NCBI GenBank assembly: GCA_965204755.1
Contig: OZ242011.1
Coordinates: 1,856,001-1,920,000, forward strand
Length of the DNA: 64,000 nt
Direction of reading: 5' to 3'
DNA from: Candidatus Marinacidobacterium sp.
Lineage (GTDB): Bacteria > Acidobacteriota > Vicinamibacteria > Marinacidobacterales > Marinacidobacteraceae
The notes beneath the pieces are model-generated. The model was not told where the DNA came from. It ran no database searches and worked only from the letters and a program-made list of their open reading frames with translations. This document shows positions 15,149 to 34,422 of this stretch, piece by piece. The translations under genes were made by a program, and so were the position numbers. Positions within the stretch are counted from its first letter, which is position 1. Each line of letters begins with the position of its first letter.

Positions 15149-16113
15149 CGGCATCGCCAACCCACCCTGACGCTGCGACAGAGGCCACTCATCGCCTCCT
15201 CCGCGATGCCCTGACCGCCTCCGACCTTGATCCGGACATGCCGTCGCCGGAGGGCTCGTCCGAACTCCACCTCCTTCCCCAAGTCCTACCCCATCTCCAA
15301 CTGCTACCCGGCCTGATTCCCAAAATGATCGCCAACGGCGAGGACATCGAGGCTACTGATCGAGCGGGACGCACTCCGCTTCACTACGCGGTCCAGTACG
15401 GTAGGAACGCGGATTTGGTCAAGGCCCTGCTGGCCGCCGGCGCAGACCCCGGGGCTCGCGACGAGAACCGCCAGACACCGCTCCATCGCGCAGCCGCTTT
15501 CAGCGACAGCGCGGATGTCTTGGAGGCACTCCTGGAGGCCGGCGCGGCTTGCCACGCCCGTGACGCACGGAAGCGAACACCCCTCCACCTCGCCGCCCGC
15601 GAGGGTCGCTCCGCGGCCGTTACCGCCCTGCTCGCCGCTGGTGCAGACATCGAAGCCCGTGACGAGGACGGCGCCACGCCGTTCCATCTGGCCGTCGCCC
15701 GGAACGACGACGCCGAAGTCGTAGCCGCGTTGGAGTCTGCCGGAGAGATCAAGAACGATCGTGATGAATGGGGTCGTGCACCGATGGATTACTGTCGGAG
15801 CGAGCAAACCTATGCGGCAGGAGCACTGGGTGTGCGTCCGGGTGAAGAAGAAGGCGTCGACTTCGTTGCATTCCGTCTCGCACGATGGATGACGAGGACA
15901 TGGGGCAAGGTTCGAGATCTTCCCTTGTTGGTGGTCGTGGTAACTGCGGTCACCCTGTCGATCTTCCTGTTGATCTATTGGCCTGTTTCTTGGTTGACCT
16001 ACTGGCTGATCGAGGATCGTCTCTGGCGGCACAATGTGAACGGCATCGTCCCCGGGCTCGTCATGTTGTGGATCTGCTGGCGTGGGCGCCGTTGGTTCGT
16101 GAAAGAAGGATGA
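15145..16113 (+). CDS. ankyrin-repeat protein with C-terminal TM segments
   Basis: four TPLH/TPFH ankyrin repeats, two hydrophobic C-terminal segments. Confidence 0.88.
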   Translation: MTASPTHPDAATEATHRLLRDALTASDLDPDMPSPEGSSELHLLPQVLPHLQLLPGLIPKMIANGEDIEATDRAGRTPLHYAVQYGRNADLVKALLAAGADPGARDENRQTPLHRAAAFSDSADVLEALLEAGAACHARDARKRTPLHLAAREGRSAAVTALLAAGADIEARDEDGATPFHLAVARNDDAEVVAALESAGEIKNDRDEWGRAPMDYCRSEQTYAAGALGVRPGEEEGVDFVAFRLARWMTRTWGKVRDLPLLVVVVTAVTLSIFLLIYWPVSWLTYWLIEDRLWRHNVNGIVPGLVMLWICWRGRRWFVKEG

Positions 16114-16556: not shown

Positions 16557-17276
16557 ATGATCTGGAGGGAAGACTTTACGCGGCTCCACATCGCGGCCGC
16601 GGTCAACGAAGAGGGCGTAGCCGCGCTCGTCGCAGCGGGTGAAGATGTCAATGCCCGCACCAAAGACGGCATTACGCCGCTCCATCTCGCCGCGATAGGG
16701 GGCGAGAACGAGGCCCTGACGACTCTGATATCCGCCGGCGCGAAAGTGAATGTCCGTGGCGGCGCCGAAGGCTGGACGCCGCTCCATGTCGCGGCCAACG
16801 GCAAGTCCGAAGGGATACTGGCGTTGGTCGCGGCGGGTGCGGATGTCGACGCCCGCGACAAGACGAAGCGAACGCCGCTCCATGTCGCGGCCGCGTTCAA
16901 CCGCGCGAAATCTGTAGCCGCGCTGATCGGATCCGGTAGCGACCCCGGTGCCAGAGCCAGATTCGGACTTACACCGCTGCATTTCGCTGCCCGTCACAAC
17001 TCGCGCGCCAAAGTCGTGACCGCGCTCATCGCCGCGGGCGCAGACATCAACGCCGTAGCCAACAGCGGCGAGACTCCTCTCCAGTGCGCGGAGATCAAGG
17101 GGAATTCGAAGATGGTGTCTGCTCTGCTGGCGGCAGGCGCGGATACCGAAGCCGGCGTCAAGCACCGATCGTCCTTCCACAGCGCGTGGAGAGTTGCTGC
17201 GACGGCCATCGTGTCTCGATTGCCCGTCTGGATGATCGTAATCGGTCTATTGGCGGTATGGATCTTCGCCTGCTGA
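16557..17276 (+). CDS. ankyrin-repeat protein with C-terminal TM anchor
   Basis: AAGGAG RBS; about six ankyrin repeats; hydrophobic C-terminus. Confidence 0.9.
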   Translation: MIWREDFTRLHIAAAVNEEGVAALVAAGEDVNARTKDGITPLHLAAIGGENEALTTLISAGAKVNVRGGAEGWTPLHVAANGKSEGILALVAAGADVDARDKTKRTPLHVAAAFNRAKSVAALIGSGSDPGARARFGLTPLHFAARHNSRAKVVTALIAAGADINAVANSGETPLQCAEIKGNSKMVSALLAAGADTEAGVKHRSSFHSAWRVAATAIVSRLPVWMIVIGLLAVWIFAC

Positions 17277-18402: not shown

Positions 18403-19800
18403 ATGCACCGAGCCGACTTGCAGCGTTTCTTCGACGCACTAGGGCCGCGTCTCGAGATGGCGCGGACGGTGGACGAGCGACTGAACTCAGAACTGGCGTC
18501 TCGGTTCAATGTCCTCGATTACATTCGGACATCGGAGCTGGGTCTCTCCCGAGTCATTGCCGACCTTCTCGACCCGAGTGCGACCCACGGTCAACAGACG
18601 CTGTTCCTGAACACTTTTCTCCGCGGTCTGCAGTCCGCGTCGAAGAGCGCGGACCGGCCGTTGGACCTCACCCACGACTACAACGACAAGTGGAAGGTGG
18701 CGAAGGGCACCGTGCGTGTCACGGTCGAACGCACCATCCCGCCCGGCCGTCGCCGACTCGATATCTCGGTGGAGTTCAAGGGAAATGATGGTCGCATCCG
18801 GTGCCTCGCCATCGAGAACAAGCCGTACGCGGGCGACCAGAAGCGCCAGATCCAGGACTACCTCGACTTCATGGAGAGTGAGTACGGCAGCAGAGACGGA
18901 GACGAACGGACCAACCATCTCTTGATCTACCTGTCCCCAGTGGGTGAGTTGCCCTCCGAGTGGAGTGTCGAGAAGAAGCGTCTCGCGCGCGAATCTGAGG
19001 AGTACGACTTTGCCGTGATGGGTTATTCGAGGGAAGGCGTCGTCGACTCAAGCCAAGAACAGGACGGCGCGAGCGAGTCGCGTCTTCGGTTGGATTGGTC
19101 CCTCGCGGAATGGTTCGACGCATGCCGACGGGAATGCGATGTGGAGCGCCTTCGCACCTTCCTGCGGGATGCGAGAGACTTTTGCCGGCAGCACTTCGGA
19201 GGTGTCGCCATGCCCGACACGACACAGGAACAGATCCGTCAGTTTCTCGAGGATCCCGAGAATCTGAAGATCGCCATGGCAGTCCACCGCCATTGGCCCG
19301 AGGTGCGCGCGGACATCGTGAAGCGATTTGCGGACCGCCTTACAGCGCGGATATCGGCGCACCTCACGGAACACCTGCCGCAACTCGGCACCATGCGAGT
19401 TGAACACTCGGTGACTGGGCACAACACGCCATGGCAGGCCTTCAAGGTGTACCGCGACGAGTGGCAAGGGAAGGGCGTGACGATCCAGATGGAGGCCCAG
19501 AAGCGGGGGAGCACGGACTGGATCGTCGGCGTCCGCAGCCCCAAGTTGAGGGACGCCCTGAAAGCACCCTTGGCTTCGGCTCTTGGAAAGCGCAGATCGA
19601 GCACAGGATGGCCGTGGTTCCGCTGGGTCGACGATCGCTGGCGATGGTGGGGCTCCGTGAGCGTCGTGCCGGATTTGAAGCGGGACCTGGAGAACGACGG
19701 AGACGCCACGCGCTACTTCGTTGACCAGGTTGCAGAACTCTGCGAGGTCGCAGTCCCGATCATCGACGAGGCTGTTCGCAGGCCCGGGGCCGGCCGCTGA
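18403..19800 (+). CDS. PD-(D/E)XK nuclease (PDDEXK_4-like) with variable C-terminal domain
   Basis: FNVL..SELGLSRVIADLLDP..HGQ..FL, RRLDI..AIENK..DQ..QIQDY, LIYLSP; internal GGAGGT + ATG at 19210. Confidence 0.85.
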   Translation: MHRADLQRFFDALGPRLEMARTVDERLNSELASRFNVLDYIRTSELGLSRVIADLLDPSATHGQQTLFLNTFLRGLQSASKSADRPLDLTHDYNDKWKVAKGTVRVTVERTIPPGRRRLDISVEFKGNDGRIRCLAIENKPYAGDQKRQIQDYLDFMESEYGSRDGDERTNHLLIYLSPVGELPSEWSVEKKRLARESEEYDFAVMGYSREGVVDSSQEQDGASESRLRLDWSLAEWFDACRRECDVERLRTFLRDARDFCRQHFGGVAMPDTTQEQIRQFLEDPENLKIAMAVHRHWPEVRADIVKRFADRLTARISAHLTEHLPQLGTMRVEHSVTGHNTPWQAFKVYRDEWQGKGVTIQMEAQKRGSTDWIVGVRSPKLRDALKAPLASALGKRRSSTGWPWFRWVDDRWRWWGSVSVVPDLKRDLENDGDATRYFVDQVAELCEVAVPIIDEAVRRPGAGR

Positions 19801-20035
19801 CCGACGCCTGCCTCGACCGCTGCAGCGGGTTCGCCTCTGGCGACGGGCGCGCCAGAGGCGTCTGCTGCCGTCGCCCGAAGCCTTGAACCGGCCACACCTC
19901 CGCTGCTGGGCCTGAGCAGCCGGCGCCGCCCCGTTGATATGATTCGGTTCCATGCTCTCCGGGCCAACCCGATTTCGGTCGAACGGGGCGCACCGTATTC
20001 GCGGCCGCTCACGGTCAGCGCGACTTGGTTGACTG

Positions 20036-20872
20036 ATGGACGCCGGTCAAGAAGTAATCGCGCCTGTAGAGACTCAGATGGACACAGAGCGACAGGTGCT
20101 TCGCGACCGGCTTTCTGTGTTCTTCTCCGGACTCGCGCCAGCTATCGACGTGGCTCGGGCGGCACAGGAGCGACTTGACCGTCGTCTCGCTACGCGGTTC
20201 TCCGTCTTTGATGATTTCTTCTACTTCATCCACAAGAAAGAGAACACCCTTTCCCGGATCTTCCGGAGTCTGCTGGACCCTCAGGGTCGCCACGGACAGG
20301 GCAGTCGGTTCCTTGATGCCCTTCTGGAAGAAGTCAGCAGCTCCATACCGGAAAACGAACTGCCACGAACGAATCTCGAGGAGTGCCGGGTCCGTACGGA
20401 GTACGGCATCAAGAAGACCACTAGAGACGGTCGTGGCAGCATCGACATCGTTGTCGAATGGCCGAAGTCTGAGTATCGGATCGGCATCGAAAACAAGCCG
20501 TGGGCAGGCGAGCAAGGCGGTCAGGTCACGGACTATGTCAAGGCACTGCTCCGTCAGACCGAGCGGTCAACGGGCGCGAAGAGAGTGTTGTTCCTGTACT
20601 TCAGTGGTAGCGGTGAAGACCCAAAAACACTTACCGGCGAGACTGCGAGAGCAGCACACTGCCTCACAGTGCCCTATCGCTCAGATTTGAGGCAGTGCTC
20701 CGTCCAAGGGTGGCTCCGTCGTTGTCGCACAAGGTGCGAGGCAGACCGTATCCGATGGTTCCTGATGGAGATCGACGACTACATCGAGCGGTCATTCCGT
20801 CATGCCGCTGTTCCAACTGACTCCCAGGAGGGAAAAGATGAAGAACGACATCCAGCTCGAGACGGCGATTGA
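20036..20872 (+). CDS. PDDEXK_4-like nuclease domain (C-terminal domain encoded separately)
   Basis: FSVF..ENTLSRIFRSLLDP..HGQG..FL, SIDI..GIENK..EQ..QVTDY, LFLYFS. Confidence 0.8.
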   Translation: MDAGQEVIAPVETQMDTERQVLRDRLSVFFSGLAPAIDVARAAQERLDRRLATRFSVFDDFFYFIHKKENTLSRIFRSLLDPQGRHGQGSRFLDALLEEVSSSIPENELPRTNLEECRVRTEYGIKKTTRDGRGSIDIVVEWPKSEYRIGIENKPWAGEQGGQVTDYVKALLRQTERSTGAKRVLFLYFSGSGEDPKTLTGETARAAHCLTVPYRSDLRQCSVQGWLRRCRTRCEADRIRWFLMEIDDYIERSFRHAAVPTDSQEGKDEERHPARDGD

Positions 20873-21428
20873 CTTCATTCGCCGAGACAGAAAGAACGCA
20901 GAACTTGCGCTACTCGTTGCGGCAGCCGTGCCCGCGTTGCAACAGCACGTTCGGGGACGCATCTCGGCGGCTGTAACGGAGGAACTGCGGAAGTTCCGCC
21001 GCCCGAACTGGAGTCTCGATGAGCACTGGGGTCGGGGGAAGCGCCTTTGGCGGCTTCGCCTTCACAAGAAGGACGGACACTGGTCCGAGAAACGGTTCAG
21101 CGGAGTATGGTTCCAGTGGGACGGTGACGACGGTATGGGCTTCCGGGTCGGCATCGAATGGCCGCAGGATCACGGAACTAGTCTGGACGAAAGTATTCGA
21201 GAGTGCTTCCGTACGGCCGATGTCGAACTCAGCGCACGACAAGAGGGTGGGGGTGATTCGGGGCGGCCGACAACTTGGTGGTTCTTCGGCTACCCCGCAG
21301 GAGATGACTGGGTCGGATGGGACTGTCTGCTCGTCAAGACGGACGAGGAGATTCCACAGTTCGTGACGGCCACGGTCGGCTTCATGAAGCGGCTGGTGGA
21401 GGTAATCGAGCGAGCCGACTTGCCTTAG
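20838..21428 (+). CDS. stand-alone C-terminal module of the PDDEXK_4-like nuclease
   Basis: AGGAGG + ATG at 20838 in the +1 frame; similar to the C-terminus of 22437..23981 (HWSE..FSGVWF.WD..FRVGIEWP..RECF). Confidence 0.75.
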   Translation: MKNDIQLETAIDFIRRDRKNAELALLVAAAVPALQQHVRGRISAAVTEELRKFRRPNWSLDEHWGRGKRLWRLRLHKKDGHWSEKRFSGVWFQWDGDDGMGFRVGIEWPQDHGTSLDESIRECFRTADVELSARQEGGGDSGRPTTWWFFGYPAGDDWVGWDCLLVKTDEEIPQFVTATVGFMKRLVEVIERADLP

Positions 21429-21977
21429 CACCACTTCGATACCTACACGAAGAGTTTCCGCCACACGCCGCCATCCGAGTGGGACTGGCCCCGGTTCGAG
21501 GGCTACTACCTCGAACTCGAGAAGAAACTCGCGGAACGGGGCGTCCATGCCTGGTGGCACACGGACACGATCCGGGGCTCCACGACCTACCCGCACCTGT
21601 TCTGCAAGGCGGTGCCGCGAAAGGACGGGAACGAAGTGCGGATCCAGATTCGGAGCGGCCACCGCGACCTGAACCAGTTGACGGTGCAGGCGACCCGCCC
21701 GAAGGGGAGAGTGGACAGCGCCACGCTGCGCCGCCTCTTCGAGGAACACCAGGCGGCCAAGTCGTCGTTGGCCGGCGGGCGCATACACCGGTCGGCCCAG
21801 CGGTTCCGCGGGGGCGGGTTTCCCCAGTTCATGAAGATCACCTTCGACGAGGACCGCGGGAGTTATGTCGCGCTCGACGCGGACGGGAACGTGGACCTCG
21901 ACGAGACCGCGAACCGCATCGTGCGCGTGCGGGAGTTCCTGGAGACCGTCTCCGGCCGCGCCGACGACAGCGGCTGA
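21429..21977 (+). pseudogene. headless nuclease-associated module (orphan middle domain)
   Basis: open frame HHFDTYTKSFR..EWDWPRFEGYYLELE..ALDADGNVDLDETANRIVRVREFL matches AFDDQTEEWR..GWGWRQIEGCYLDLE..ALNEDDTIDVAETAKRIRRVGDFI in 22437..23981; no start codon at its homologous 5' end. Confidence 0.7.
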
Positions 21978-21995
21978 AAGCGGAGTCCGCCTCAC

Positions 21996-22175
21996 CGGGG
22001 CCGCCCGCCCCCTTGACAGCGGGGGTCGCCACTGCATCCACGAGCCCGAGCGCGGCTCGGTGCACGAGCCGGTGGGCGTCGACATCCGCTCGGCGGTCGG
22101 CCGGATTGAGGCCGACTCGGTCCCTTTTGGGGCGAACGCCTATGCCGAGGACCGCCGGATCGGCTCCCCGACGAG
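21996..22175 (+). pseudogene. degenerate internal fragment of the TonB-dependent receptor gene
   Basis: ERGSVHEPVGVDIRSAVGRIEA vs ERGSVDEPAGVDFRSAVGRVEA. Confidence 0.8.
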
Positions 22176-22436
22176 GCCGGCTGGCGCGCTCACTTCGGGA
22201 CGGCGACTCGCAGAGCCACTTACCCGGTTTTTGCCTTGATATTCAATGACTTGCGTCTCATTCCGCTGAAGTTGACAGAGCGACTTGCTTCCCTCCGCCG
22301 CTTATGGCCAGATACGGGTCAACGCTCGTCGACTCGCCTCCGCGCCTTTTTCGGCCCGATGCGGGTGCTTCTTCTGTCAATCGCCCTAATCCGGCATGCC
22401 CCGCCGGCGCTGTCGCCGTACGGAGTCACCCAAGCG

Positions 22437-23981
22437 ATGACCAACTATCTCCCTCCGAACTTCTACTCGTTCGCTACCAAGGAACTGGACCAAGATGCGG
22501 CCATCGCCTACATCTTGGCATGGGCCGACCCGCAGTATCGGGACGCGCCCGCTCCGGACTCCAAGATGCATGGCCTCGCCCAAGCACTGCTCGGGGCGCT
22601 CGTCTCGACGCACCCGAGCCATGAGGACTGGACCCCCGAGAAGGTGACGAAGGTCGAAGTCACGACCCAAGAAAAGCAGGTGGATGTCCGCGCCCTGATC
22701 GAGACCGAAGACGGGACGCTCCTCCTCATCGTCGAGGACAAGATCGGCGCCACCGAACACGGCAACCAGATCCGCCGGTATGTCGAGGAATCTCGACGCC
22801 GTTTCCCGGGAGCCGAGATCGTCCCGGTCTATGTCAAGACCGGTAACGAGTCGGCGGACTATCTGCGGCGCAGGCTCTCGGTGGTATGCGGTGTCTTTCC
22901 GAGAAAGGCTCTCCTCGCCGTCCTCAACGACCACCGGGAAACCGGAAACCGGATCGTGGATGACTTCCGCGACCACTGGCAGGCCTTCGACGACCAGACC
23001 GAGGAATGGCGTTCCCGGAAGGTTGACGGTTGGGGATGGAGGCAAATCGAGGGGTGCTACTTGGACCTCGAGCGTCACGAGACAGAATGGCACTGGGGAG
23101 TGGATACGAGAGGCTTCAAACAAGTCCTCAACTTTTGGGCAGACTCCTTGATGATGAACATCGAGACGATTCCCGAGATCCAGTTGCGCGTCGAGATAGA
23201 GAACGCGAGAACGATGTGGATCTCGGCGCATCAGAAGAACCAACCAGTGTCTCGCACGACATTGGAGTATCTGAAGACGGTGCTTGCCTCGAGAAAGGGC
23301 CTTTCTGTCGGGATGGGCCTCACGCTTCGCAGAGCGCACACCAAGGCGGGTTCCAGGTGGCCGAGACCTGTACAGGTGATTGCTGACGAGAAAACGCTCG
23401 ACTACCGCGCTCTCAACGAGGACGACACGATCGATGTCGCCGAGACCGCGAAGCGGATCCGTCGGGTAGGCGACTTCATCCGGAGGACTCCTGAGCGAGT
23501 GGCACGGCGTGATGCTCTGAGCGGTCTTGTGCGGGAACGCTTGGAGAAGTCGCAGTCCGAGTCGCCGTGGAAGGTCCGCCCGCCTTCCGAGAGACTGCGC
23601 ATCTACAAGGAGAATCACTGGTCGGAGACTGCGTTCAGCGGAGTGTGGTTCCTGTGGGATGCTGACGATCAGACCTTTCGAGTCGGTATCGAGTGGCCGA
23701 AGGAGGGCGTGCCGAATCTGGCCGAGGGAGTTCGGGAATGCTTCGGTGCGGCCGGTATCGAAGCCAGTCGCGAGCAGGAAGGCGGAAGGGAACGGAAGCG
23801 GCCGAAGACCCGTTGGTTCTACGGTTCCCCGAAAGCCGAGGACTGGAGTTGGAAACGACTCTGTGACAAGAGCGACGAGGAACTGAGCGACTACGCGGAA
23901 GCCGTTGTGGCGCTGATGCGGGCCTTGGCCGGCGTCATAGACGACGCCGAGGAAACACCGGCCAGCCAGCCACCGTCCTGA
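22437..23981 (+). CDS. PD-(D/E)XK nuclease (second PDDEXK_4-like subtype) with two C-terminal modules
   Basis: FATKELDQDAAIAYILAWA, VDV..IVEDK..NQIRRY, VYVKTG. Confidence 0.8.
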   Translation: MTNYLPPNFYSFATKELDQDAAIAYILAWADPQYRDAPAPDSKMHGLAQALLGALVSTHPSHEDWTPEKVTKVEVTTQEKQVDVRALIETEDGTLLLIVEDKIGATEHGNQIRRYVEESRRRFPGAEIVPVYVKTGNESADYLRRRLSVVCGVFPRKALLAVLNDHRETGNRIVDDFRDHWQAFDDQTEEWRSRKVDGWGWRQIEGCYLDLERHETEWHWGVDTRGFKQVLNFWADSLMMNIETIPEIQLRVEIENARTMWISAHQKNQPVSRTTLEYLKTVLASRKGLSVGMGLTLRRAHTKAGSRWPRPVQVIADEKTLDYRALNEDDTIDVAETAKRIRRVGDFIRRTPERVARRDALSGLVRERLEKSQSESPWKVRPPSERLRIYKENHWSETAFSGVWFLWDADDQTFRVGIEWPKEGVPNLAEGVRECFGAAGIEASREQEGGRERKRPKTRWFYGSPKAEDWSWKRLCDKSDEELSDYAEAVVALMRALAGVIDDAEETPASQPPS

Positions 23982-24147
23982 CTTCCGTTCCGCGAGGGCT
24001 ACGCGCTCGTCGCGGAGTTTCGTAGCGTCGCGTGAGGACCGCCCCGGAACGCGGCGCTCGCGTATGGCCGGCGGCTTGCGCGCTGAAGAGCGACGCCGGA
24101 GCGACCAGAGCCGTCGCTTCAAGGCCGTGAATCGGCGCGGCGAGTTG

Positions 24148-25264
24148 GTACCATCCGCCGTTCTCTTGCTGCGGAATCTCGCCCGCTCGGGCCTCCCCCT
24201 CGTCGTCACCGCCGGCCTCGCCGCCGCCGCGCCGCCCGAGGATGACCGCCCCGATGCGCCAACGACCACGGACCCCACAACCCCCACCGAACCCCCCGCC
24301 GCCCAACCCGACGACCCCGACGCCCAACCCCCCGCCTACTCCGAAACCGTAGTCGTCACCGCCTCCCGCGCCGAGGAGTCCGTCGTGGACTCCGTCGCCC
24401 TCGTCACCTCCCTCGACGCCGACGCCCTCGCCCAATCCCCCGGCGCCCTGGTGGACGAGGCCCTCGCCCGCGTCCCCGGGTTCGGACTCTTCCGCCGCAA
24501 CACCAGCCTCATCTCGCACCCCACCACCACCGGGGTCTCCCTCCGCGGGCTCGGCCCCAGCGGGGCCAGTCGCAGCCTCGTCCTCTGGGACGGGATCCCG
24601 CTGAACGACCCCTTCGGCAACTGGGTGTACTGGAACCGCCTCCCCACCCTCCTCCTCGACCGGGTCGAAGTCGCGCGCGGCGGGGCCAGCCCGCTCTACG
24701 GCAGTTCCGCGCTCGGCGGAACCATCCAACTCTTCTCCCGCGACCCGGCGCCGGCCTTCCACGCCCGCGCCCGCGCCGGGGAACTCGGCGTGCGCGACGG
24801 CGAAGTCATGGCCTCCCACCGCTTCGGCGACTTCGGTTTCGTCGGCGCCGCCCGCCTCTTCGACAGCGAGGGCTACCACCGCATCCGCGAGTCCGAGCGC
24901 GGCTCGGTGGACGAGCCGGCGGGCGTGGACTTCCGCTCGGCGGTCGGCCGGGTCGAGGCCGGCCCGGTCCACTTCGGCGTCAACTACTACTCCGAAGACC
25001 GCAGGAACGGCACTCCGACCCAGGTCAACGACTCCCGCCTCCTGCTCCTCAGCGGCGGCATCACGCAGGACGACTGGAGTCTCAGCCTCTTCGGCCAGAG
25101 CGCCGAACTGAACAGCGACTTCTCCCGCATCCTCGCCGGCCGCGACCGGGAAATCCCCACCTCCCAGCAGCACTACGAGTACTCCGGGCTCGGCGGCCTC
25201 TTCACCGCGCGCCTCGGCGACACCGTGATGGTCGGGGCCGACTGGGTGCGCTCTTCTTGGGACG
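24148..25264 (+). pseudogene. 3'-truncated near-identical duplicate of the TonB-dependent receptor gene
   Basis: direct repeat of 28854-29979; diverges abruptly after ...RSSWD. Confidence 0.9.
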
Positions 25265-25769
25265 GCTACCATCGTTCGGTCCCCTTTTGCCTTTATAATC
25301 AACGACTTACAATCTCTTCCATTGAAACGGAAACCGCGACTTGCTGCACGGGCAGCTGGTACCGCCCTGTGTCCGAGGTCGTCCGTGGCAACAACTTGCG
25401 AAGGTCTCAGCGTCGGCGGTCGGGTGTGTAGAATGTGGCTCGGTTCTGACAGCAGCGCCGGGCACTCACCCCCCCAGAATTCTACAGACCGACAAGCAGC
25501 CGGGAGGGCCGCAATGGCTTCTAAACGTTTGACTAGATTGGATTTCCGCGGCGAGTTACGGGCTCGGATGCTACGAATTCTTTCGAAAATTCGATTAGTT
25601 CCGCCAGAGGTCGTCGTGGTCGTGCTGGACTGGCTAATGCGAGCGCTGGGCGGATGACGCGTAGACGGGGGAAAGGGAAGAGAGGGAGACTTGAGGTTGC
25701 CCCCTTTCGTGTACATGCCGGCGGCGGTGCCCTCGCGGGCTCCGCCGAAGCGGGAACAGACGCCGCCCT

Positions 25770-25990
25770 AGAGGACGGGTTCAGGGCCTCGAAGCGGGTG
25801 GCGCGGCGGGAAGCATGGATCCCGACCAGTACGCTGGTGCAGTGGTCCACCGCGACGAAGACCGTCACCTGGCTCTCCCGGAGGGTGGCGGTGGAGGTGG
25901 CGTTGGAGCCCCACATCACATCCAGCGCCTCGGTGCGGATGGTCCCCGGTGTGGTGGCGGGGCCGCAGGGGCCGCCGCCGCGGACGGGCG
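25770..25990 (-). mobile_element. integrase-core (IS3/IS481-like) transposase fragment
   Basis: MWGSNATST..VTVFVAVDHCT..VGIHA..RFEAL. Confidence 0.6.
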
Positions 25991-25994
25991 GGTG

Positions 25995-26330
25995 GGGAAG
26001 CCGACGGCGCTGGACGGCTACGAGGGCGCGGTGGAGTCGGTGCAGCGGGTGCTGGGCGACGCGTTCGCCTCGGCCTGCGGGTTCGAGGTGGACGCCTGCC
26101 GGCCGGGTCGGGGCTCGGACAGGGGGAAGGTGGAGCGGGGGGTTCGGGGGTTCCGGGAGTCGAAGTCCGGGGTGTTCCGGGAGGGAGCGGGGAGTCTTGG
26201 GGAGTTGGAGGAGCGACTGGCGGCGCGCGGGGAGGAGTTGATGGCTCGCTGGATCTGTCCGGCGACCGGAGAGTCGGTGGCCGGGTGTGCTGGCGGAGGA
26301 ACGGCGGTCGCTGCGTTCGTTGCCGACGAT
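25995..26330 (+). mobile_element. IS21-family transposase (IstA) fragment
   Basis: FASACGFEVDACRPGRGSDRGKVERGV. Confidence 0.65.
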
Positions 26331-26765
26331 GGTGGAGTCGAGCGTCCGCCCCGGGCTCGCCGGCGCGACTTGGTTCCTAGAGGCTCAGCGTCGGACGGTC
26401 GAAGAAGGTAGGCGGATGCAATTCAGGCCGAGAGAGTTCGGGACGCCTTCCGTGCGGGCCGCGTGTACCGACCTGCCTCCGGTGTCTGGCTGCTCGACTT
26501 GAACCATCTGAGCATTTCCGCGGGTGCCCGCCTGCTCGGCACTTGATCCGCGAGCCACTGTCAGTGCCAACACTCAACGACTCGGCTCTCGGCTCATAGG
26601 TCATCTTAGAACAAGGGGCAGAGCGTTCGTGATAATGGGTGGCTCCGCGCCGCCGATGCGACCTCCGTCACGAACGCATCCTAAGGCTCCGCTACATCCT
26701 CGGGTGTCGCTGCCCGACAGAGCAAGTCTTTCCGTTGCGCCACTAGCCTGAGCGGCACGACGCGT

Positions 26766-28725
26766 CTACCTCCTTCGCGGGAAGATGCATTTGAGGACTT
26801 CAATGTCCTTCTCCGCGAAGAAATGGACGCTTGAGCCACTGAGCCACGGGGCCGACAGACTGCCCCAAGCCATCCTCACGCCCGGTGTTCCGAAGGGTAC
26901 ATCCGGATGTTCGAACCCTAGGAGGTGAGCTACTTCGTGAAGTAGTCCGGCCCCGTGACGGCCGTTGCCACTCCACCGCCCGGCGCAACAGGGGTCCTCA
27001 TCTCGCCACCACTTGCCCATCGTCCTACGGTTGTAACTCGTCGTACCCGTGTAGGTGAATGCCACATTCGGGGATCCTCCACGATGATCCCAAAACGACG
27101 AATCGTCATCCATGTAGAAGGCCAGCAACTGCCCTCTCTTTCGCGGCAACACATAGGGAGCCTCTCCATAACGATGGTAGTCGGTGTTCCACCCTCTCGG
27201 CATGCCAGGCGGAACTGGCACTATCTCCCCCATTTCCAAGATCCGGTACCCAACCTGCTCCTCGATGTCGTCAGCCAGAGAACGGAACGGCTCCAACTGT
27301 TCAAGGAGGTCCTCGTCGGTGACGAAAGAAGGGAAATTCCGTACGATATCCACTCGAAACGGCGTTCCGTCCCACTCATCCAATAGAAATCCGGCAGGAT
27401 GCCGGCCTACTTCGCGCCGTTCAATGCTGCAGTCGCGAATGTCTGCGAACGGCATGGTCTTGCGAACCTCATGTCCGCTTGCGTTCTCTATGGCGTGAGG
27501 GCCAAGATCTGTATCGACCGGAATCTTGCCGTCCCGCGACAGGATCGCTCCCTCATTTAGTTCTATCGCGTCCTCCGGGATACTGATACCGTCAGGATCG
27601 TGGTCATCATAACCGACGAAATAGCGGAATCGAACATCTGAATCCGATGTATTATGAAAGATGGCATATCGATATCCATATCCCACTTGAATTAGAAGCC
27701 TCGGCCACCCAGAAACCTCTACATCACCGCTCCATCGAACATCGATATAGACCGACTCGTTATCCTGATAGCCGAGTGGCGGATTATGAGGTCCGCCTGC
27801 CAAGTACACCCTTCTGATGCTAAGTCCGACACCTTCGCTGAAGTCGCGCACTCTATGGTCCGGAGAGTTCACTATTGCGTGTTGCCTGAGGTCTGTACTT
27901 ACTGTGGTCTCCGTACGAAAAAAGGAAGTGATCGATCCACCGCTGAGATCTATCGCTTCTGGAGGGAGGCTGATACCGTCATCGTCATGATCGTAGTTGC
28001 CTACGCGATACCTGAATTCGATACGGCCTGACGAAGACTGTTCGTAGAAGCGTGCGAATCGTTGCTCACTTCCAATTTCCAGTAGCATCTTCGGAGAACC
28101 TGTGACTTTGACGGCACCGCCGAAATAGACAGCAATTTGGATCTGCTCATCTGCCAGATAGCCGATCTCGAAATTCGACGGCTCCCGAATCAATATTCTC
28201 CGCACGCCTATTCCGACGAGCACCTTATCTCCACGGCGTTCTCGGAACAGATTCGTGTCAACCGACCGGCTACCGGTAGTGATGGACCCGCCGTTTAGCT
28301 CCAAGGCGTCCGCAGCGATGCTAATGCCGTCGGAGTCGTAATCGTCACCCCGAACGTCGTACGTGTAAAGGACACATCTGCCACCGGTCGAACTGACGGT
28401 CGCGAGTCTGGTGTGTTCACCAATCTCAATCCTCAGTCTCGGCGATCCGGAGACGTCAACCTGTGGGCCCCAACAGATATAGCCGGAAATGCGCTCGCCC
28501 ACCTGATATCCCAATGACGGATTGTCGGAGCCGTGGAGATCAAAGTCTTCGACTCGACTTCCAGTACCGGCAGACGGCGGAGTCGGCGCCGTAGGAGGCG
28601 GAGTCGGTGCCGTAGGAGCGAGAGTCGGGGAGGAATCCCCCCCCCCCCCCGCTGCAGCTGACGATCATCAACGCGGTGACGGATGCCACGAGTGGCCGCC
28701 GAAAGTTGTAGCGCGATCCGAACAC
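26766..28725 (-). CDS. lipoprotein with three Ig-like repeats and a metzincin metallopeptidase domain, frameshifted at a G14 tract
   Basis: GGGAGG + GTG at 28725, signal ending MIVSC; G14 at 28637-28650; three repeats GY..V.G.P.L.I.IG..F.Y.V..D.D.DGISI; HEVAHLLGFEH; lower GC. Confidence 0.75.
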
Positions 28726-28820
28726 GAAGTCCTCCCTTCTTTCCCGAGTCTTGGCGAAAATCCGGGTCGAGTGATGCCGCAAGTATACCGGAGCCTGTGA
28801 ACGGGCATGGCCGTTGAGGG

Positions 28821-30827
28821 ATGGGCCCGGAATCGCCCACTTCGTGCGTAGATGTACCATCCGCCGTTCTCTTGTTGCGGAATCCCGCCCGGTCGGGCCT
28901 TCTCCTCATCGTTACCGCCGGCCTCGCCACCGCCGCTCCGCCCGAAGATGAGCGGCCCGATGCGCCAACGACCACCGACCCCACAACCCCCGCCACCGCC
29001 ACCAACCCCCCCGCTCCCCAACCCGACGACCCCGACCCCCAACCCCCCGCCTACTCCGAAACCGTAGTCGTCACCGCCTCCCGCGCGGAGGAGTCCATCG
29101 TGGACTCCGTCGCCCTGGTCACCTCCCTCGACGCCGACGCCCTCGCCCAATCCCCCGGCGCCCTGGTGGACGAGGCCCTCGCCCGCGTCCCCGGGTTCGG
29201 ACTCTTCCGCCGGAACACCAGCCTCATCTCGCACCCCACCACCACCGGGGTCTCGCTCCGCGGGCTTGGCCCCAGCGGGGCCAGCCGCAGCCTCGTCCTC
29301 TGGGACGGGATCCCGCTGAACGACCCCTTCGGCAACTGGGTGTACTGGAACCGCCTCCCCACCCTCCTCCTCGACCGGATCGAAGTCGCGCGCGGCGGGG
29401 CCAGTCCGCTCTACGGCAGTTCCGCGCTCGGCGGAACCATCCAACTCTTCTCCCGCGACCCGGCGCCCGCCTTCCACGCCCGCGCCCGCGCCGGGGAACT
29501 CGGCGTGCGCGACGGCGAAGTCATGGCCTCCCACCGCTCCGGCGACTTCGGTTTCCTCGGCGCCGCCCGCCTCTTCGACAGCGAGGGCTACCACCGCATC
29601 CGCGAGTCCGAGCGTGGCTCGGTGGACGAGCCGGCGGGCGTGGACTTCCGCTCGGCGGTCGGCCGGGTCGAGGCCGGCCCGGTCCACTTCGGCCTCAACT
29701 ACTACTCCGAAGACCGCCGCAACGGCACCCCGACCCAGGTCAACGACTCCCGCCTCCTGCTCCTCAGCGGCGGCATCACGCAGGACGACTGGAGCCTCAG
29801 CCTCTTCGGCCAGAGCGCCGAACTGAACAGCGACTTCTCCCGCATCCTCGCCGGCCGCGACCGGGAAATCCCCACCTCCCAGCAGCACTACGAATACTCC
29901 GGGCTCGGCGGCCTCTTCACCGCGCGCCTCGGCGACACCGTGATGGCCGGGGCCGACTGGGTGCGCTCTTCCTGGGACGACCACGCGCAGAACCGGCTCG
30001 GCGCCTTCGTCCAGAAGCGGTTCTCCGCGAGCGACCGCGTGGAGTTCCTCGCCGACGGCCGCGCCGACTTCTGGCAGAACGCCGGGAACCGCGTCAGTTT
30101 CAACCCCCGCCTCGGCGTCCGCGTCCGCGCCGCCGACCGCGCCACCCTGCGCGCCTCCGCCTACCGCGGCTTCCGCGCGCCGTCGCTGAACGAGTTGTAC
30201 CGCCCCTTCCGCGTCGGCAATGTCCGCGTCGCCGCCAACGACGAACTCGGCGAAGAAACCCTCTACGGCGCCGAGGCCGGGGTGGACCTCTACCCGTCCG
30301 CGGACCTGCTGCTCCGCGCCAACCTCTTCTGGAACTCGCTCCGCGACGCCGTCGGGAATGTCACGCTCGAAGTGAACGACCGGGGAGTCTTCCGCCAGCG
30401 GCGGAACATCGGCCGCGCGCGGGTGCGCGGCGCCGAAGCGGAACTGCGACTCCGCGCCTCCGCCGACCTCGAACTCTTCGCCGCCTACCTCTTCTCCTCC
30501 GCCACTGTCGAGGACACCGGGCTGCGGCTGCCGCAGACGCCGCTCCACCAGGGGACGCTGGGTTTCGTCTGGGACGGGCCGGCGCAGGTGCGCGCCGACC
30601 TGCGGTTCATGAGCGAGCAGTTCGAGGACGACCGCAACGAGTTGCCGATGGCCGGCTTTGCCTCGCTCGGCGTCCGCGCCGCCTTCCCGGTAACCGAGGG
30701 CATCGGCATCTATGCGGCGGGCGAGAACCTGCTCGACGCCGAGATCGTCAGCGCCCGGACGCCCATCGAGACGCTGGGAACCCCCCGCGCCATCCACTTC
30801 GGACTCGACCTCCGCTTCGGCCGATGA
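28821..30827 (+). CDS. TonB-dependent receptor (intact copy; start uncertain)
   Basis: TonB box ETVVVTASR, plug RGLG..LVLWDGIPLND, RIEVARG..LYGSSALGGTI, C-terminal GLDLRF. Confidence 0.92.
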   Translation: MGPESPTSCVDVPSAVLLLRNPARSGLLLIVTAGLATAAPPEDERPDAPTTTDPTTPATATNPPAPQPDDPDPQPPAYSETVVVTASRAEESIVDSVALVTSLDADALAQSPGALVDEALARVPGFGLFRRNTSLISHPTTTGVSLRGLGPSGASRSLVLWDGIPLNDPFGNWVYWNRLPTLLLDRIEVARGGASPLYGSSALGGTIQLFSRDPAPAFHARARAGELGVRDGEVMASHRSGDFGFLGAARLFDSEGYHRIRESERGSVDEPAGVDFRSAVGRVEAGPVHFGLNYYSEDRRNGTPTQVNDSRLLLLSGGITQDDWSLSLFGQSAELNSDFSRILAGRDREIPTSQQHYEYSGLGGLFTARLGDTVMAGADWVRSSWDDHAQNRLGAFVQKRFSASDRVEFLADGRADFWQNAGNRVSFNPRLGVRVRAADRATLRASAYRGFRAPSLNELYRPFRVGNVRVAANDELGEETLYGAEAGVDLYPSADLLLRANLFWNSLRDAVGNVTLEVNDRGVFRQRRNIGRARVRGAEAELRLRASADLELFAAYLFSSATVEDTGLRLPQTPLHQGTLGFVWDGPAQVRADLRFMSEQFEDDRNELPMAGFASLGVRAAFPVTEGIGIYAAGENLLDAEIVSARTPIETLGTPRAIHFGLDLRFGR

Positions 30828-33025
30828 CTCGTCGGGCATCCGCCGCCGGGCGCTTCCTCGCCGCGGCGCTGACCCTCGCCGCCCTCGCCTGCGGCGGCCC
30901 CGCCCCCGCGCCGGAAACCCAGGCCCCGGCCGGCCTCCGCGACCTCTCCGACTGGCCGCGGCAAACCCTCCGCGACGAGCCCTTCGATGTCCTCCACTAC
31001 CGGGTGGAACTCGACCTCGACGAGACCCGCCGCAGCCTCGACGGCCGCGCCGAGATCCGCCTCGTCGCCGAAGAAGACCTGACGCAACTCACCCTCGACG
31101 CCGAAACCTTCACCGTCACCGCCGTCGAAGTGGACGGCGCCGCCGCCGACTTCACCCAGGTCGCCGGCGTCCTCGACATACGACCGACCGAGCCCCTCCC
31201 CGCCGGCGCCGAAGCCCTGCTCGCCGTCGAATACGGCGGCGAGGGAGTGGATGTGGACGCCACGCGCTACGGGATGCCGGCCTCCTACGACCTCGGCCTC
31301 GACTTCAAGTCGGAAACCGACGCCAACCCCGAACTCGTGAACACCCTCTCCTTCCCGGAGGGCGCCCGCCACTGGTATCCCTCGGTGGACCACCCGGCCG
31401 ACCGCGCCACCTTCGAGGTGCTGGCCACCGTGCGCGAGGACTGGCGCGTCCTGTCGAACGGCCGCCTGGTCGGCATCACCGAAGGCGGGCGCCCCGGAAC
31501 GCGCACCCACCACTGGCGCCTCGACGAGCCGCACCCGACCTACCTTTCGGTGCTGGTCGCCGGCCCCTACGAGGTGATCGAAGACGCGCACGGCGCCGTG
31601 CCGGTGAACTACTGGGTCTATCCGCAGGCGGTGGCCGACGCCGACCGCAGTTTCCACAAGACGCCGGCGATGCTCGCCTTCTTCGAGGAGGAATACGGCG
31701 GCGTCCCCTACCCGTGGAACAAGTACGACCAGGTCACCATCCCCGGCATCGGCGGCGGCGCGGAGAGCACCACCGCGACCGTGCTCGGCCAGAGCACGAT
31801 CCACGACGAACGCGCCGAGCAGGACTTCCCCAGCCACGGCCTGGTCGCCCACGAGGCCGCGCACCATTGGTTCGGCGACTTCGTCTCCTACCGCGACTGG
31901 GGCGAGACCTGGCTCAGCGAGAGTTTCGCCACCTGGTCGGAGTACCGCTGGCACGCCGAGGAACTCGGCCCCGCCGAAGCCGGCGAAAACATGCGCCGGA
32001 AGCGCGAGTCCTACTTCCGACAGGCGCGGACGGTGCTGCGCCCGGTCGTCGGCGACCGCTGGCGCCGCCCGAACGACAACTTCGACGCCCACACCTACCC
32101 GAAGGGCGCGGCGCTGATCCACCTCCTCCGCCACATCGTCGGCCCGGAGGAGTTCCGCCGCGGTCTGGGCCACTTCCTGGAAAAGCACGCCTTCCAGCCG
32201 GTGGACACCGAGGACTTCATCACCGCCTTCGCCGAAGAACCGGGTGCGGACATCCGCTGGTTCGTGGACCTGTGGCTGCGGAGGCCGGGCCATCCGGTGC
32301 TGGAGATCACTTCGTCCTGGGCCGACGGGCAGGTGGAAATGCACATCCGCCAGGTGCAGTCGCCGGAAGCCAGCATCGGCGAAGTCCCGGACGCCTACCG
32401 CGCGCCGCTCTCCGCGCGGGTGGTCGGCGAGTCCGGTTCCGAGACCCACGAGTTCTGGCTCGAAGGCCGTGAGCAGACCCTGACCTTCCCGGCGGCGGAG
32501 CGCCCGAAGTTCGTCCGCTTCGACGCCGACGATGTGCTGCTGGCGGAGTTGCGGATCGACAAGCCCGGCGAGGAATGGATCGCCCAGTTGCGCGAGGACG
32601 ACGCCGCCGGCCGCCGCCGCGCCGCCGTGGCCCTCGGCGGCTTCCGCGAACGCGAAGCCCGCTCCGCCCTCTGGGAAGCCGCCGCGAACGACCCCTTCTG
32701 GGCCGTCCGCCAAGCCGCGCTGGAGGGCCTCGACCCGTCCAACCCCGCCGATTTCGACACGCTCTCCACCGCCGCCGCCGAGGACCCCAAGTCCACCGTT
32801 CGCGCCGCCGCCCTCGACCTCCTGGGCGTCACCGGCAACGCCCCGTTCCTCATCGAACGCTTCCACGCCGACTCGTCCTACGCCGCCCAAGCCGCCGCCC
32901 TCCGCTCCCTCGGCCGCGCCGGCGGCGACTTGGCCCCTCCGGTCCTGGAGGAGGCGGCCGCGATGGCGTCTCCCCGCGATGTAATCGCCCGCGCCGCCCG
33001 GGAAGCGCTCGAGTCCCTGCGGTAA
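30824..33025 (+). CDS. M1-family aminopeptidase with HEAT repeats, lipoprotein
   Basis: GGAES (GAMEN-like), HEAAHHWFG..WLSESFA, YPKGA; C-terminal HEAT repeats. Confidence 0.9.
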   Translation: MTRRASAAGRFLAAALTLAALACGGPAPAPETQAPAGLRDLSDWPRQTLRDEPFDVLHYRVELDLDETRRSLDGRAEIRLVAEEDLTQLTLDAETFTVTAVEVDGAAADFTQVAGVLDIRPTEPLPAGAEALLAVEYGGEGVDVDATRYGMPASYDLGLDFKSETDANPELVNTLSFPEGARHWYPSVDHPADRATFEVLATVREDWRVLSNGRLVGITEGGRPGTRTHHWRLDEPHPTYLSVLVAGPYEVIEDAHGAVPVNYWVYPQAVADADRSFHKTPAMLAFFEEEYGGVPYPWNKYDQVTIPGIGGGAESTTATVLGQSTIHDERAEQDFPSHGLVAHEAAHHWFGDFVSYRDWGETWLSESFATWSEYRWHAEELGPAEAGENMRRKRESYFRQARTVLRPVVGDRWRRPNDNFDAHTYPKGAALIHLLRHIVGPEEFRRGLGHFLEKHAFQPVDTEDFITAFAEEPGADIRWFVDLWLRRPGHPVLEITSSWADGQVEMHIRQVQSPEASIGEVPDAYRAPLSARVVGESGSETHEFWLEGREQTLTFPAAERPKFVRFDADDVLLAELRIDKPGEEWIAQLREDDAAGRRRAAVALGGFREREARSALWEAAANDPFWAVRQAALEGLDPSNPADFDTLSTAAAEDPKSTVRAAALDLLGVTGNAPFLIERFHADSSYAAQAAALRSLGRAGGDLAPPVLEEAAAMASPRDVIARAAREALESLR

Positions 33026-33048
33026 CAGAGTGCGATAGCCCCGTTCCC

Positions 33049-34422
33049 ATGAATGCCTCCGGAACATCGATCGGTGGCGACAGGTCCGCGTACGAGCTCC
33101 TGCGCCAAGCGGAAGTGCTGTACGAGCGCTACGAGGCGGGCCGGAAAGAACCCTTCAACCTGTTCTCGGTGTTGCGCAAAGCGAGCGACGAGGAACACCT
33201 GCACTCGAAGTTCCTCGCGGCTCTCCTGAACTGGGAGTCACCGGAAGACGGCGCGGAAAAGGGTGCCAAGAAGAACCTCCGCGACTTCGTTGAGCAGGTC
33301 GTGGCACCCGCCGTGGACACCGCGCGCGAAGAGGCAGCCCGCAAAGAGGCGGAAGGCGGGGATGCGGAGTCACCGGAGGACCGCGGAGAGCCGCGTCTAG
33401 AGAACGCGGCCCCTCCCTCCGCACCCCAGGTCGAAAGCCATGAACGGCGCGAAGCGGATGTCGGTAATGGCGATTCCTACCGGAGCGGCTCTCTCAGTGC
33501 CGGGCAGTTCTCGTTCTTGGTTGACGAGGGTGCCAGAGTCGAACGGGAACGGCATCACATCGATCTGCTGATCACGAACGCCGACGGCCAGGCGATCGTG
33601 CTCGAGAACAAGATCTGGGCAGGCGACCAGCCACGGCAACTTGAGCGTTATTTCGACACAGTAAAGCGTCTCGGCTTGGAACCGACGCTCGTCTATCTGA
33701 CGCTTGATGGCCGCCCACCGTCCGAACAGAGCCGTAGGGAACATGTAGTCGCTTGCCTGAGTTACAGAGAGGACCTTATTCCGTGGCTGAGGGGATGCCA
33801 GGAGAGAGCCTGCGACGAGCCGGCACTGCGAGAGTCGGTGGCTCAGTATCTCGCTCTGATTCACACCCTATGCGGCGACGCCGGGAGGGAATTCATGACC
33901 GAACTCACGAAACTCTTGCGCGAGGGAAACGACCTCATCTTGGCGCGTACGCTCGGAGATGCCGCCACGGTTGCCTGGGGCGATCTCCTCTTCGACTACT
34001 GGGAAGGCGTACGCCAGGAAGTCGAAACGGAGATCGGCCTGCTGCCCGACCAAAGCGATCTTCGAGGCTGGATCAAACGGTTCGTTGACCGGCGAGCGGG
34101 TCACTTCCACTACTCTTGGCCTCTACCGAGCGAATGGGCGCCGGCTCCGCTCGCTCTCGAGGCGCGACGCGATGGCGGAATCTTCTGGGGTGTCATCTGC
34201 GGCAACCGGGAACACCGGGAACTGTACGGCCGACTGAAGGACAAACTGAGTCCTTTGGGGTATGCCCATGCTGAGCGGTGGTGGTCCGGCCGCAAGTTCG
34301 TCTGTGAGGGGAATACCAGCAGACCCTCCGAGAGGGTGCTCGCGGTCTTGAACAACGCGCAGAAGCGAAGTGAGGTTGTCCGGGATCTGATCGAGACTTG
34401 GGAGTCTCTGCGAAAGGCCTGA
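33049..34422 (+). CDS. PD-(D/E)XK nuclease (PDDEXK_4-like) with variable C-terminal domain
   Basis: FNLFSVL..DEEHLHSKFLAALL, HIDLLI..VLENKI..DQPRQLERY, VYLTLDG; internal GGAGG + ATG at 33895. Confidence 0.88.
   Translation: MNASGTSIGGDRSAYELLRQAEVLYERYEAGRKEPFNLFSVLRKASDEEHLHSKFLAALLNWESPEDGAEKGAKKNLRDFVEQVVAPAVDTAREEAARKEAEGGDAESPEDRGEPRLENAAPPSAPQVESHERREADVGNGDSYRSGSLSAGQFSFLVDEGARVERERHHIDLLITNADGQAIVLENKIWAGDQPRQLERYFDTVKRLGLEPTLVYLTLDGRPPSEQSRREHVVACLSYREDLIPWLRGCQERACDEPALRESVAQYLALIHTLCGDAGREFMTELTKLLREGNDLILARTLGDAATVAWGDLLFDYWEGVRQEVETEIGLLPDQSDLRGWIKRFVDRRAGHFHYSWPLPSEWAPAPLALEARRDGGIFWGVICGNREHRELYGRLKDKLSPLGYAHAERWWSGRKFVCEGNTSRPSERVLAVLNNAQKRSEVVRDLIETWESLRKA

Follow-up and report, generated by a model that had tools for sequence, protein, structure and literature searches.

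Organization of the locus

A stretch of 64,000 nucleotides (nt) from Candidatus Marinacidobacterium sp. (phylum Acidobacteriota; GenBank assembly GCA_965204755.1, contig OZ242011.1, positions 1,856,001 to 1,920,000 of the forward strand) contains four paralogous genes for predicted nucleases, termed here paralogs A to D. The whole stretch is referred to as the window, and all coordinates given without a contig are window coordinates. All four genes are on the plus strand. Paralog A (18403..19800, +) encodes a full-length, two-domain nuclease of 465 amino acids (aa) that consists of a PDDEXK_4 domain, a disordered linker and a C-terminal domain (C-domain) of about 196 aa. The linker carries an internal site (19198..19212, +) made up of a GGAGGT Shine-Dalgarno (SD) sequence and an in-frame ATG (Met270). 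The short product predicted from this start is the free C-domain (19210..19800, +; 196 aa), for which a folding model was made separately. Paralog B (20036..20872, +; 278 aa) comprises only the nuclease domain and matches positions 5-262 of the A-type hidden Markov model. Its end overlaps an AGGAGG sequence, an ATG and the gene B' (together 20826..21428, +), which encodes a divergent C-domain of 196 aa in the +1 frame. Paralog C (22437..23981, +) has a weak PDDEXK_4 domain, recognized by its Pfam match, a middle region and a last module like that of B'. Its frame is open from 22236, and ATG 22437 is the likeliest start, having the best SD among the candidates (-6.1 kcal/mol). Paralog D (33049..34422, +) is a full-length nuclease of 457 aa whose Met1 aligns with the start of its homologues. 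It too has an internal site, GGAGG with an in-frame ATG (Met283; 33884..33897, +), and its predicted short product (33895..34422, +; 175 aa), an in-frame open reading frame (ORF), is homologous to the A-type C-domain.

The initial annotation had described these genes as PDDEXK_4-like nucleases, and all four products match PF14281 (PDDEXK_4) above its gathering score of 22.3 bits (A 83.9, B 61.5, C 29.4, D 82.3). B' has no PF14281 match, as expected for a C-domain. The PADLOC profile PDC-S26 matches D with an E-value of 1.3e-66, A with 2.8e-28, B with 1.5e-22 and C with 5.7e-09, while the match of B' is marginal (0.048); the alignment of paralog D covers positions 89-401 of the 413 in the profile, including both domains. 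The catalytic D...E-x-K residues, D120 and E138-N139-K140, are invariant in 44 A-type sequences, and IDxxV...ENK or EDK is legible in the translations of all four paralogs. By these matches the four paralogs are PDDEXK_4 / PDC-S26 nucleases of the PD-(D/E)XK type, with activity predicted. A Pfam scan of the five products (E <= 0.1) found PF14281 only, with no match to Rpn/PDDEXK_2 or DUF4351. We take PDDEXK_2/Transposase_31 to be the Rpn-type nuclease domain and DUF4351 (PF14261) to be the Rpn short protein. The window nucleases are not members of the Rpn family, since no Pfam family besides PF14281 matched any of them. A search of the genome with PF14281 returned the four window paralogs and one weak fifth match elsewhere. 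The latter (G000:C1:3355852-3356148, minus strand; 26.4 bits) lies inside a 360-aa open frame.

Internal start sites in the window

In paralog A, GGAGGT (19198-19203) is separated by the spacer gtcgcc from ATG 19210, which shares its frame with the ORF from ATG 18403. The corresponding elements in paralog D are GGAGG (33884-33888, within GGGAGGG), the spacer gaattc and ATG 33895, in frame with the ORF from ATG 33049. At the B/B' junction, AGGAGG (20826-20831) and the spacer gaaaag precede ATG 20838, and the gene that starts there (20838-21428) is read in the +1 frame relative to B and shares 35 nt with it. The predicted energy of the duplex with the anti-SD sequence is -10.8 kcal/mol at each of the three sites. 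The full-length starts give -5.7 kcal/mol (A, 18403), -2.2 (B, 20036) and +0.3 (D, 33049). In A and D the linker start is the sole in-frame ATG, GTG or TTG of the gene with an energy of -6.5 or lower. The 16S rRNA of this organism, located with RF00177, has a canonical 3' end (...GGATCACCTCCTTTCT, with the CCUCC tail). The initial annotation had placed a strong SD and ATG at 19210, 20838 (+1 frame) and 33895, exactly where the nuclease domain ends, with weak or no SD at the full-length starts and with the C-terminal domain of B now a separate, overlapping gene. All of this was borne out when the sequence was read again.

Sites of this strength are rare in the genome. Among 7764 internal in-frame ATGs from 1896 ORFs with high GC content at third codon positions (GC3), 97 (1.25%) have a GGAGG-type motif at a spacer of 4-10 nt, and an energy of -10.8 kcal/mol is reached by 33 of 7209 such ATGs (0.46%), or 5.5e-5 per codon. 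The three strong internal SD and start sites are confirmed as real and are far beyond chance. The B/B' frameshift is not peculiar to one assembly, because contigs from runs X3 and X5, whose study differs from that of X1, span 20440-20884 with 0 other letters and 0 gaps, and hence without an insertion or deletion.

A fourth candidate had been suggested in the last module of paralog C (23482..23501, +). Both of its elements, GGAGG (23482-23486) and the in-frame GTG 23499, are present, but the site is weak (-9.3 kcal/mol, across a 12-nt spacer). Comparative support for GTG 23499 was sought and none was obtained. Two further in-frame candidates in paralog C, TTG 23061 and GTG 23709, have similar scores. 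The site of the fourth paralog is thus unconfirmed.

Conservation of the linker start in the A-type branch

A search with paralog A gave 297 homologues (E <= 0.001), mostly full-length; the 120 listed are 408-508 aa long. In an alignment of 44 of them, reaching down to 35% identity, the peptide F-G-G-x-x-M is conserved, with Met in 39, Val in 4 and Lys in 1. DNA was taken from genome contigs for 80 relatives (L001-L080), of which 69 could be mapped at the site. They come from metagenome-assembled genomes (MAGs) labelled Acidobacteriota, Gamma- and Alphaproteobacteria, Gemmatimonadota, Latescibacterota and others. Including that of the window, 54 full-length A-type ORFs were recovered, 53 of them distinct, and the counts below rest on these 53. 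Left out were eight broken genes (L021, L032, L033, L035, L044, L049, L061 and L066) and fourteen cut-short or partial loci (L052, L055, L056, L064, L065, L067, L068, L070, L072, L073, L074, L076, L077 and L079). Several other genomes gave more than one A-type locus. A relative about 95% identical to paralog A is contained in a run labelled as a sponge metagenome.

The nucleotide sequence at the linker is conserved beyond what the peptide demands. At Gly266, 48 of 50 genes use GGA, where the Gly usage of the same genes (26% GGA) would predict 11.6 (binomial 3e-28). At four other conserved Gly columns, used as controls, GGA is found in 10/43, 3/50, 6/52 and 10/45. These columns account for shared ancestry because they are drawn from the same genes with the same phylogeny. 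Where residue 267 is Asp or Glu, the codons still read GGA GAN, and GGAG is retained. Column 270 is ATG in 35 and GTG in 7 of the 53 genes, all 7 Val codons being GTG against a baseline of 28%, and in 3 further genes a GTG stands one codon upstream. The distance from SD to start is kept at 6-7 nt. Averaged over the genes, the anti-SD energy has its minimum, -8.2 kcal/mol, 5' of positions 269-271 (gene mean -2.35, standard deviation 1.32), and the best N-terminal start candidate averages -4.9. An ATG or GTG with an energy of -4.5 or lower is present in 46/53 genes and one with -7 or lower in 35/53, which divides the sites into 35 strong, 11 moderate and 7 absent or weak. Taken together, the codon comparisons show the linker site to be under selection at the nucleotide level in the A-type branch.

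We considered whether the motif could arise by chance or from amino-acid constraint, F-G-G-x-x-M being structural and GGAGG a by-product of Gly-Gly. F265, G266 and G267 are near-invariant, and conservation of the motif is to that extent at the protein level. However, Gly-Gly has 16 spellings, and GGA makes up 26% of Gly codons overall and 96% at the site; B and D write their SD over other residues (Q-E-G and G-R-E); the peptide falls within a segment modelled as disordered; and sites of the strength seen in the window occur at the low genomic rate given above. As judged from codon usage, this explanation is already contradicted by the synonymous-codon test, and we regard it as barely credible.

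Pairwise identity among A-type proteins averages 30% in the C-domain and 48% in the N-terminal domain (N-domain), and the C-domain is the less similar in all 1326 pairs.

Split genes and stand-alone C-domains

Five A-type loci are broken exactly at the linker site (L043, L051, L062, L080 and L071), and in each the C-terminal part starts at the conserved ATG or GTG behind GGAG(G). In L062 and L080 the upstream frame ends in ...FGD-stop and ...FGE-stop, respectively, and the ATG follows after 2 nt. The stop is followed by 3 nt and GTG in L043, and by 21 nt containing GGAGG and then ATG in L071; L051 has a 10-nt duplication, and its stop overlaps ATGA. When 400 further genomes from this phylum were scanned, 8 proved to have the family, and these included two more two-gene forms (L168 and L171). 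With the window's B/B', the two-gene forms total eight. In the eight other broken A-type genes the breaks are at scattered places and appear pseudogene-like. As far as ORF structure can tell, the split forms show the linker site in use as a gene start. The B/B' pair of the window is one case of a recurrent natural state, not an oddity, because the other two-gene forms break at the same site. Two loci, L097 (an in-frame stop near, though not at, the linker) and L174 (a C-terminal part without a clear start), were left uninterpreted.

C-domains also occur on their own. L094 is a full-length D-type gene followed directly downstream by a second, stand-alone copy of the C-domain (L094:1847-2476), which starts at a copy of the linker motif 5' of its ATG and is 60% identical to the gene's own C-domain. 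A profile search of proteins with the C-domain found seven stand-alone proteins, and the five that were fetched (P0278-P0282) all begin at the linker Met. One of these, P0281 (357 aa), joins an A-type C-domain to the extra last module of paralog C (50% identical to B') and likewise starts at the linker Met. B' is similar to P0278 in its first 50 residues and to the last module of paralog C in residues 84-206; paralog C itself aligns with P0281 over residues 411-569 at 56% identity and with B' over residues 453-572 at 50%. C-domain modules are, by these alignments, shuffled and stacked in the PDDEXK_4 / PDC-S26 family, because the extra module is common to paralog C, B' and P0281.

For B/B' alone, the AGGAGG before GGA-AAA-G might prompt an occasional +1 frameshift, giving some fused B-B' protein besides the two separate products. 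Reading AAA-G as AAG would join the frames exactly at ...QEGK-MKND. Programmed +1 frameshifting stimulated by an SD is familiar from prfB, where the spacing from SD to codon differs from that of B/B'. The A site here holds neither a stop nor a rare codon, and the other two-gene forms do not have a slippery site in common. We weighed this explanation and rated it unlikely, leaving it a very small probability.

The split genes bear also on the possibility that the SD-like motif and Met have no separate product, and mark either a translational pause at the domain boundary or the relic of a fused two-gene operon. Fusion and fission have occurred, since two-gene forms exist; the motif lies at the domain boundary, where a pause could help folding, and D-type genes often retain the Met without an SD. 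A relic is difficult to reconcile with a synonymous GGA kept in 48/50 genes at 30-45% amino acid identity across several phyla, the control Gly codons being scrambled. A pause could do without a start codon, whereas here every Met-to-Val replacement is GTG and the spacing stays at 6-7 nt. We therefore give this explanation only a slim chance.

Structure prediction

The AlphaFold2 model of paralog A has two confident domains (mean predicted local distance difference test score, pLDDT, 84.3; predicted template modelling score, pTM, 0.54). The low pTM suggests that the relative position of the two domains is not fixed. The linker, residues 268-275, holds Met270 and is predicted to be disordered (pLDDT <50), which places the internal start where the nuclease domain ends. 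Modelled alone, the C-domain reaches a pLDDT of 93.2 and a pTM of 0.87. The best match of the N-domain in the PDB is 2vld (NucS/EndoMS), which is weak (E 0.014; template modelling score, TM, 0.14-0.26), as are the matches to restriction enzymes. The C-domain has no significant fold match in the PDB (best 3sse, the McrB DNA-binding domain; E 0.13, TM 0.29-0.35) or in BFVD (best E 0.016, TM 0.26), and no sequence relative in the PDB. In the ESM Atlas it resembles unnamed clusters of 184-211 aa at 0.95-0.96, which is a lead and not evidence.

A complex model of full-length A with the free C-domain scored 0.75, compared with 0.00 for the best of 3 controls. In calibration, 0.75 was reached by 58/80 solved complexes and by 2/110 mismatched pairs. 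The runs have at least 83% of contacts in common, with a partner pLDDT of at least 86, and the PDB contains no solved relative of the C-domain that the model could have memorised. The modelled interface has two-fold symmetry: on the full-length protein and on the free C-domain alike it is formed by residues 275-305 and 419-427, and the N-terminal helix of the full-length protein (residues 1-17) adds contacts. The model thus predicts pairing between the free C-domain and its counterpart in the full-length protein.

Proposed function

The comparisons described above give good support to a conserved internal start from which a separate C-domain is made. The tail domain probably exists as a product of its own as well, and it may hold the nuclease in check; a toxin/antitoxin function of the long and short forms is plausible. 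In the mechanism that we propose, the selected SD and ATG or GTG in the flexible inter-domain linker would drive internal initiation. Each fused gene should then encode a pair of products: the full-length nuclease (L), whose translation starts inefficiently, and the free C-domain (S), which is initiated more efficiently from the linker site. Where the gene is split, as in B/B' and the other two-gene forms, the second gene starts at that site. The C-domain would be an autonomous dimerisation module, with S pairing with the C-domain of L through their first long helices, and excess S would titrate L into L:S assemblies unable to join two nuclease domains. S would then act as a dominant-negative brake on L, an intragenic antitoxin as in the RpnL/RpnS pair. 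We put this reading, of two-domain PDDEXK_4 nucleases with a selected linker start whose S form restrains L, at even chances. The S:L ratio, inhibition, toxicity and a role in phage defence are its inferred parts. A brake role is favoured by the internal SD being stronger than the primary one, by the faster-evolving C-domain and by the several divergent gene copies.

Alternatively, the internal start may be real and S a required stoichiometric subunit, or a partner in DNA or target recognition (for example in L2S2 or N2C2 assemblies), and not an inhibitor. We regard this as the main rival, though less likely than not. Two-gene forms without a covalent link between N- and C-domain persist in several lineages, as a hetero-oligomer would allow, although their persistence fits a brake and a subunit alike. 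The contacts of the N-terminal helix of L (residues 1-17) with S in the complex model would also suit a subunit, as would the best, non-significant fold neighbour of the C-domain, which binds DNA in McrB. On the other hand, each L chain already has a C-domain, and it is not obvious why assembly should require more copies. With -8.2 versus -4.9 kcal/mol, the internal SD exceeds the primary one in strength, which suggests an excess of S, more typical of a brake, and a fast-evolving C-domain fits paralog specificity, as in Rpn. There is precedent for such a subunit in Cas10d/Cas11d and Cas8/Cas11, in which the C-terminal part of the large subunit is translated from an internal site and binds the full-length protein as a required structural subunit. 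The likeness to the window genes lies in the separately translated C-terminal part of a larger gene; Cas11 is a required subunit and not an inhibitor, and the proteins are unrelated. The internal-start small subunit of Cas10d/Cas11d is mentioned in Zhong et al. (bioRxiv 10.1101/2023.05.02.539157).

Relation to known systems

The proposed brake has its nearest model in Rpn. In that system an internal translation initiation site lies at the C-terminal domain, and the short protein is also found as a separate gene or second copy; RpnS dimerises through its long first helix, the C-domain evolves fast, and genomes carry several rpn copies (PMC10400984; Zhong et al. 2023, PNAS, bioRxiv 10.1101/2023.05.02.539157). 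The window family shares with RpnL/RpnS a PD-(D/E)XK nuclease gene whose internal start lies at the edge of the C-terminal domain, a short protein that also occurs as a separate gene or second downstream copy, a variable C-terminal part and several copies per genome (here four and the weak fifth). Dimerisation of the short form through a long first helix is a further likeness, although it is only predicted for the window family. The second C-domain copy of L094 mirrors rpnE-ypaA, as that pair is presented in Zhong et al. The Pfam family of the window nucleases, PF14281, is not that of Rpn. For Rpn, toxicity, inhibition and phage defence have been shown, whereas the window family is known from sequence and models.

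The initial annotation had named Rpn and McrB as precedents, and the sources agree with it on both. McrB-S arises from an in-frame internal start, lacks the DNA-binding domain, titrates McrC and modulates the complex, according to PMC12707154. McrB-L/McrB-S resembles the window genes in being a restriction-type gene in which an in-frame internal start gives an N-terminally truncated, modulating form; McrB differs in being an AAA+ GTPase, without sequence relation to the window nucleases. The logic of a truncated inhibitor recurs in Tn5, in a protein family different from that of the window nucleases. There, an N-terminally truncated in-frame product (Inh) forms inactive mixed oligomers with the full-length enzyme (Tnp), a DDE transposase, and the ratio of the two products is set by separate promoters and starts. 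NucS/EndoMS and type II restriction endonucleases have the PD-(D/E)XK fold in common with the window nucleases, but the similarity is weak and the C-domain is not common to them. We know of no internal start in these enzymes.

In the literature on PDDEXK_4, PF14281 and PDC-S26 we found no description of an internal start; the supplementary tables of Zhong et al., which were not covered, may list candidate families. A search for internal initiation in anti-phage nucleases found only Rpn-related work. With some hesitation, and at a little less than even chances, we suggest that the widespread PDDEXK_4 / PDC-S26 nucleases could form, independently of Rpn, a second family of gene-within-gene toxin-antitoxin systems in defence, with an internally initiated C-terminal dimerisation domain as the dominant-negative antitoxin. 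Here it is a comparison of genes that reveals such a signal in a nuclease family other than Rpn: a synonymous codon and a start codon are held across phyla, and split genes use the site. If the proposal is correct, the Rpn principle would be general for PD-(D/E)XK defence nucleases, and fission at the internal start would show how two-gene toxin-antitoxin pairs arise from, or collapse into, one gene. Because Gly-Gly codons spell the SD, synonymous changes can abolish it, which makes the case clean and cheap to test. More generally, hidden gene-within-gene products can be sought by looking for SD conservation at synonymous sites in domain linkers. The Koonin commentary that followed the Rpn discovery (PMC10400984) asks whether intragenic regulators from internal starts are "the tip of an iceberg".

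The D-type branch and points against a brake

At E <= 0.001 a search with paralog D matched 4131 cluster representatives (clusters at 50% identity). Of the 76 that were aligned, 54 have the linker Met, and 12 more have a Met five residues earlier. DNA was obtained for 71 distinct genes, mostly metagenomic; the linker start has the best SD among in-frame internal starts in 16/70. Plasmid genes of three cultured strains, Vibrio gigantis, Massilia sp. H6 and Photobacterium sp. TY1-4, all retain the Met. A search of viral contigs found three D-type loci. On the small plasmids of Vibrio gigantis (L178) and Photobacterium (L180), the D-type gene lies beside parA/parB, with AbiEi and HipA toxin-antitoxin genes nearby.

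A number of observations weigh against a brake of the RpnL/RpnS kind, some of them from this branch. A strong SD (-7 kcal/mol or lower) precedes the linker start in only 14 of the 71 D-type genes, and many of the remainder are low in GC, AT-rich upstream and without an SD. Among the three plasmid genes of cultured strains the SD is strong in none and moderate in one (Massilia, -6.5 kcal/mol). Seven of the 53 A-type genes are without a site, five in Arenicellales MAGs and two in distant members. The short form predicted in the window is an alpha/beta domain of about 196 aa, whereas that of Rpn is a three-helix bundle of about 60-90 aa. The complex model represents C-domain pairing only, and a structural subunit would fit it equally well. 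PDC-S26 is a candidate defence family only; the neighbourhoods of 26 A-type loci are mixed; and PADLOC and Pfam searches of the window's other ORFs found no recognised defence system near the paralogs.

The initial annotation had proposed a family-wide scan for SD enrichment at the linker. The enrichment is very strong in the A-type branch, where 46/53 genes have a site. For the D-type branch the claim holds only in part, because so few of its genes have a strong SD. Across the family, the SD signal is therefore strong in one branch and partial in the other.

The five Arenicellales genes (L045, L048, L054, L057 and L063) form a clade of full-length genes in which SD and start codon have both been lost (TTC GGA AAT AGC AAA TCA ...). 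No separate C-domain ORF was found within 4 kb of any of them. They provide a natural control group without the internal start.

Genomic surroundings

The GC content of the window is about 68%, that of the stretch from 14 to 28 kb is 60-65%, and that of the whole genome is 71.7%. No tRNA gene is present within the window to mark an island border. Neighbours of the paralogs in the window include two ankyrin-repeat proteins, a TonB fragment with the plug only, a TonB-dependent receptor, a peptidase M1 and a PQQ/BamB-like protein. Paralog D starts, without an SD, 23 nt past the stop of the peptidase M1 gene (30824-33025), which suggests that it is co-transcribed with this housekeeping-looking gene of much higher GC3.

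The ankyrin-repeat proteins (15145-16113, + and 16557-17276, +; Pfam Ank 6e-39) are encoded just 5' of the nuclease cluster. Their PADLOC matches to PDC-M72A/Ankyrin stem from the repeats, and ankyrin ORFs adjoin 2 of the 26 A-type loci scanned. Downstream of paralog C, a TonB-dependent receptor fragment with the plug domain only (24064-25431, +) and a complete TonB-dependent receptor (28821-30827, +) flank a low-GC stretch (about 60%) with a 582-aa ORF on the minus strand (26766-28514), for which Pfam and PADLOC gave no match. The plug-only fragment, the minus-strand ORF and the complete receptor may represent a disrupted or duplicated receptor gene with an insertion.

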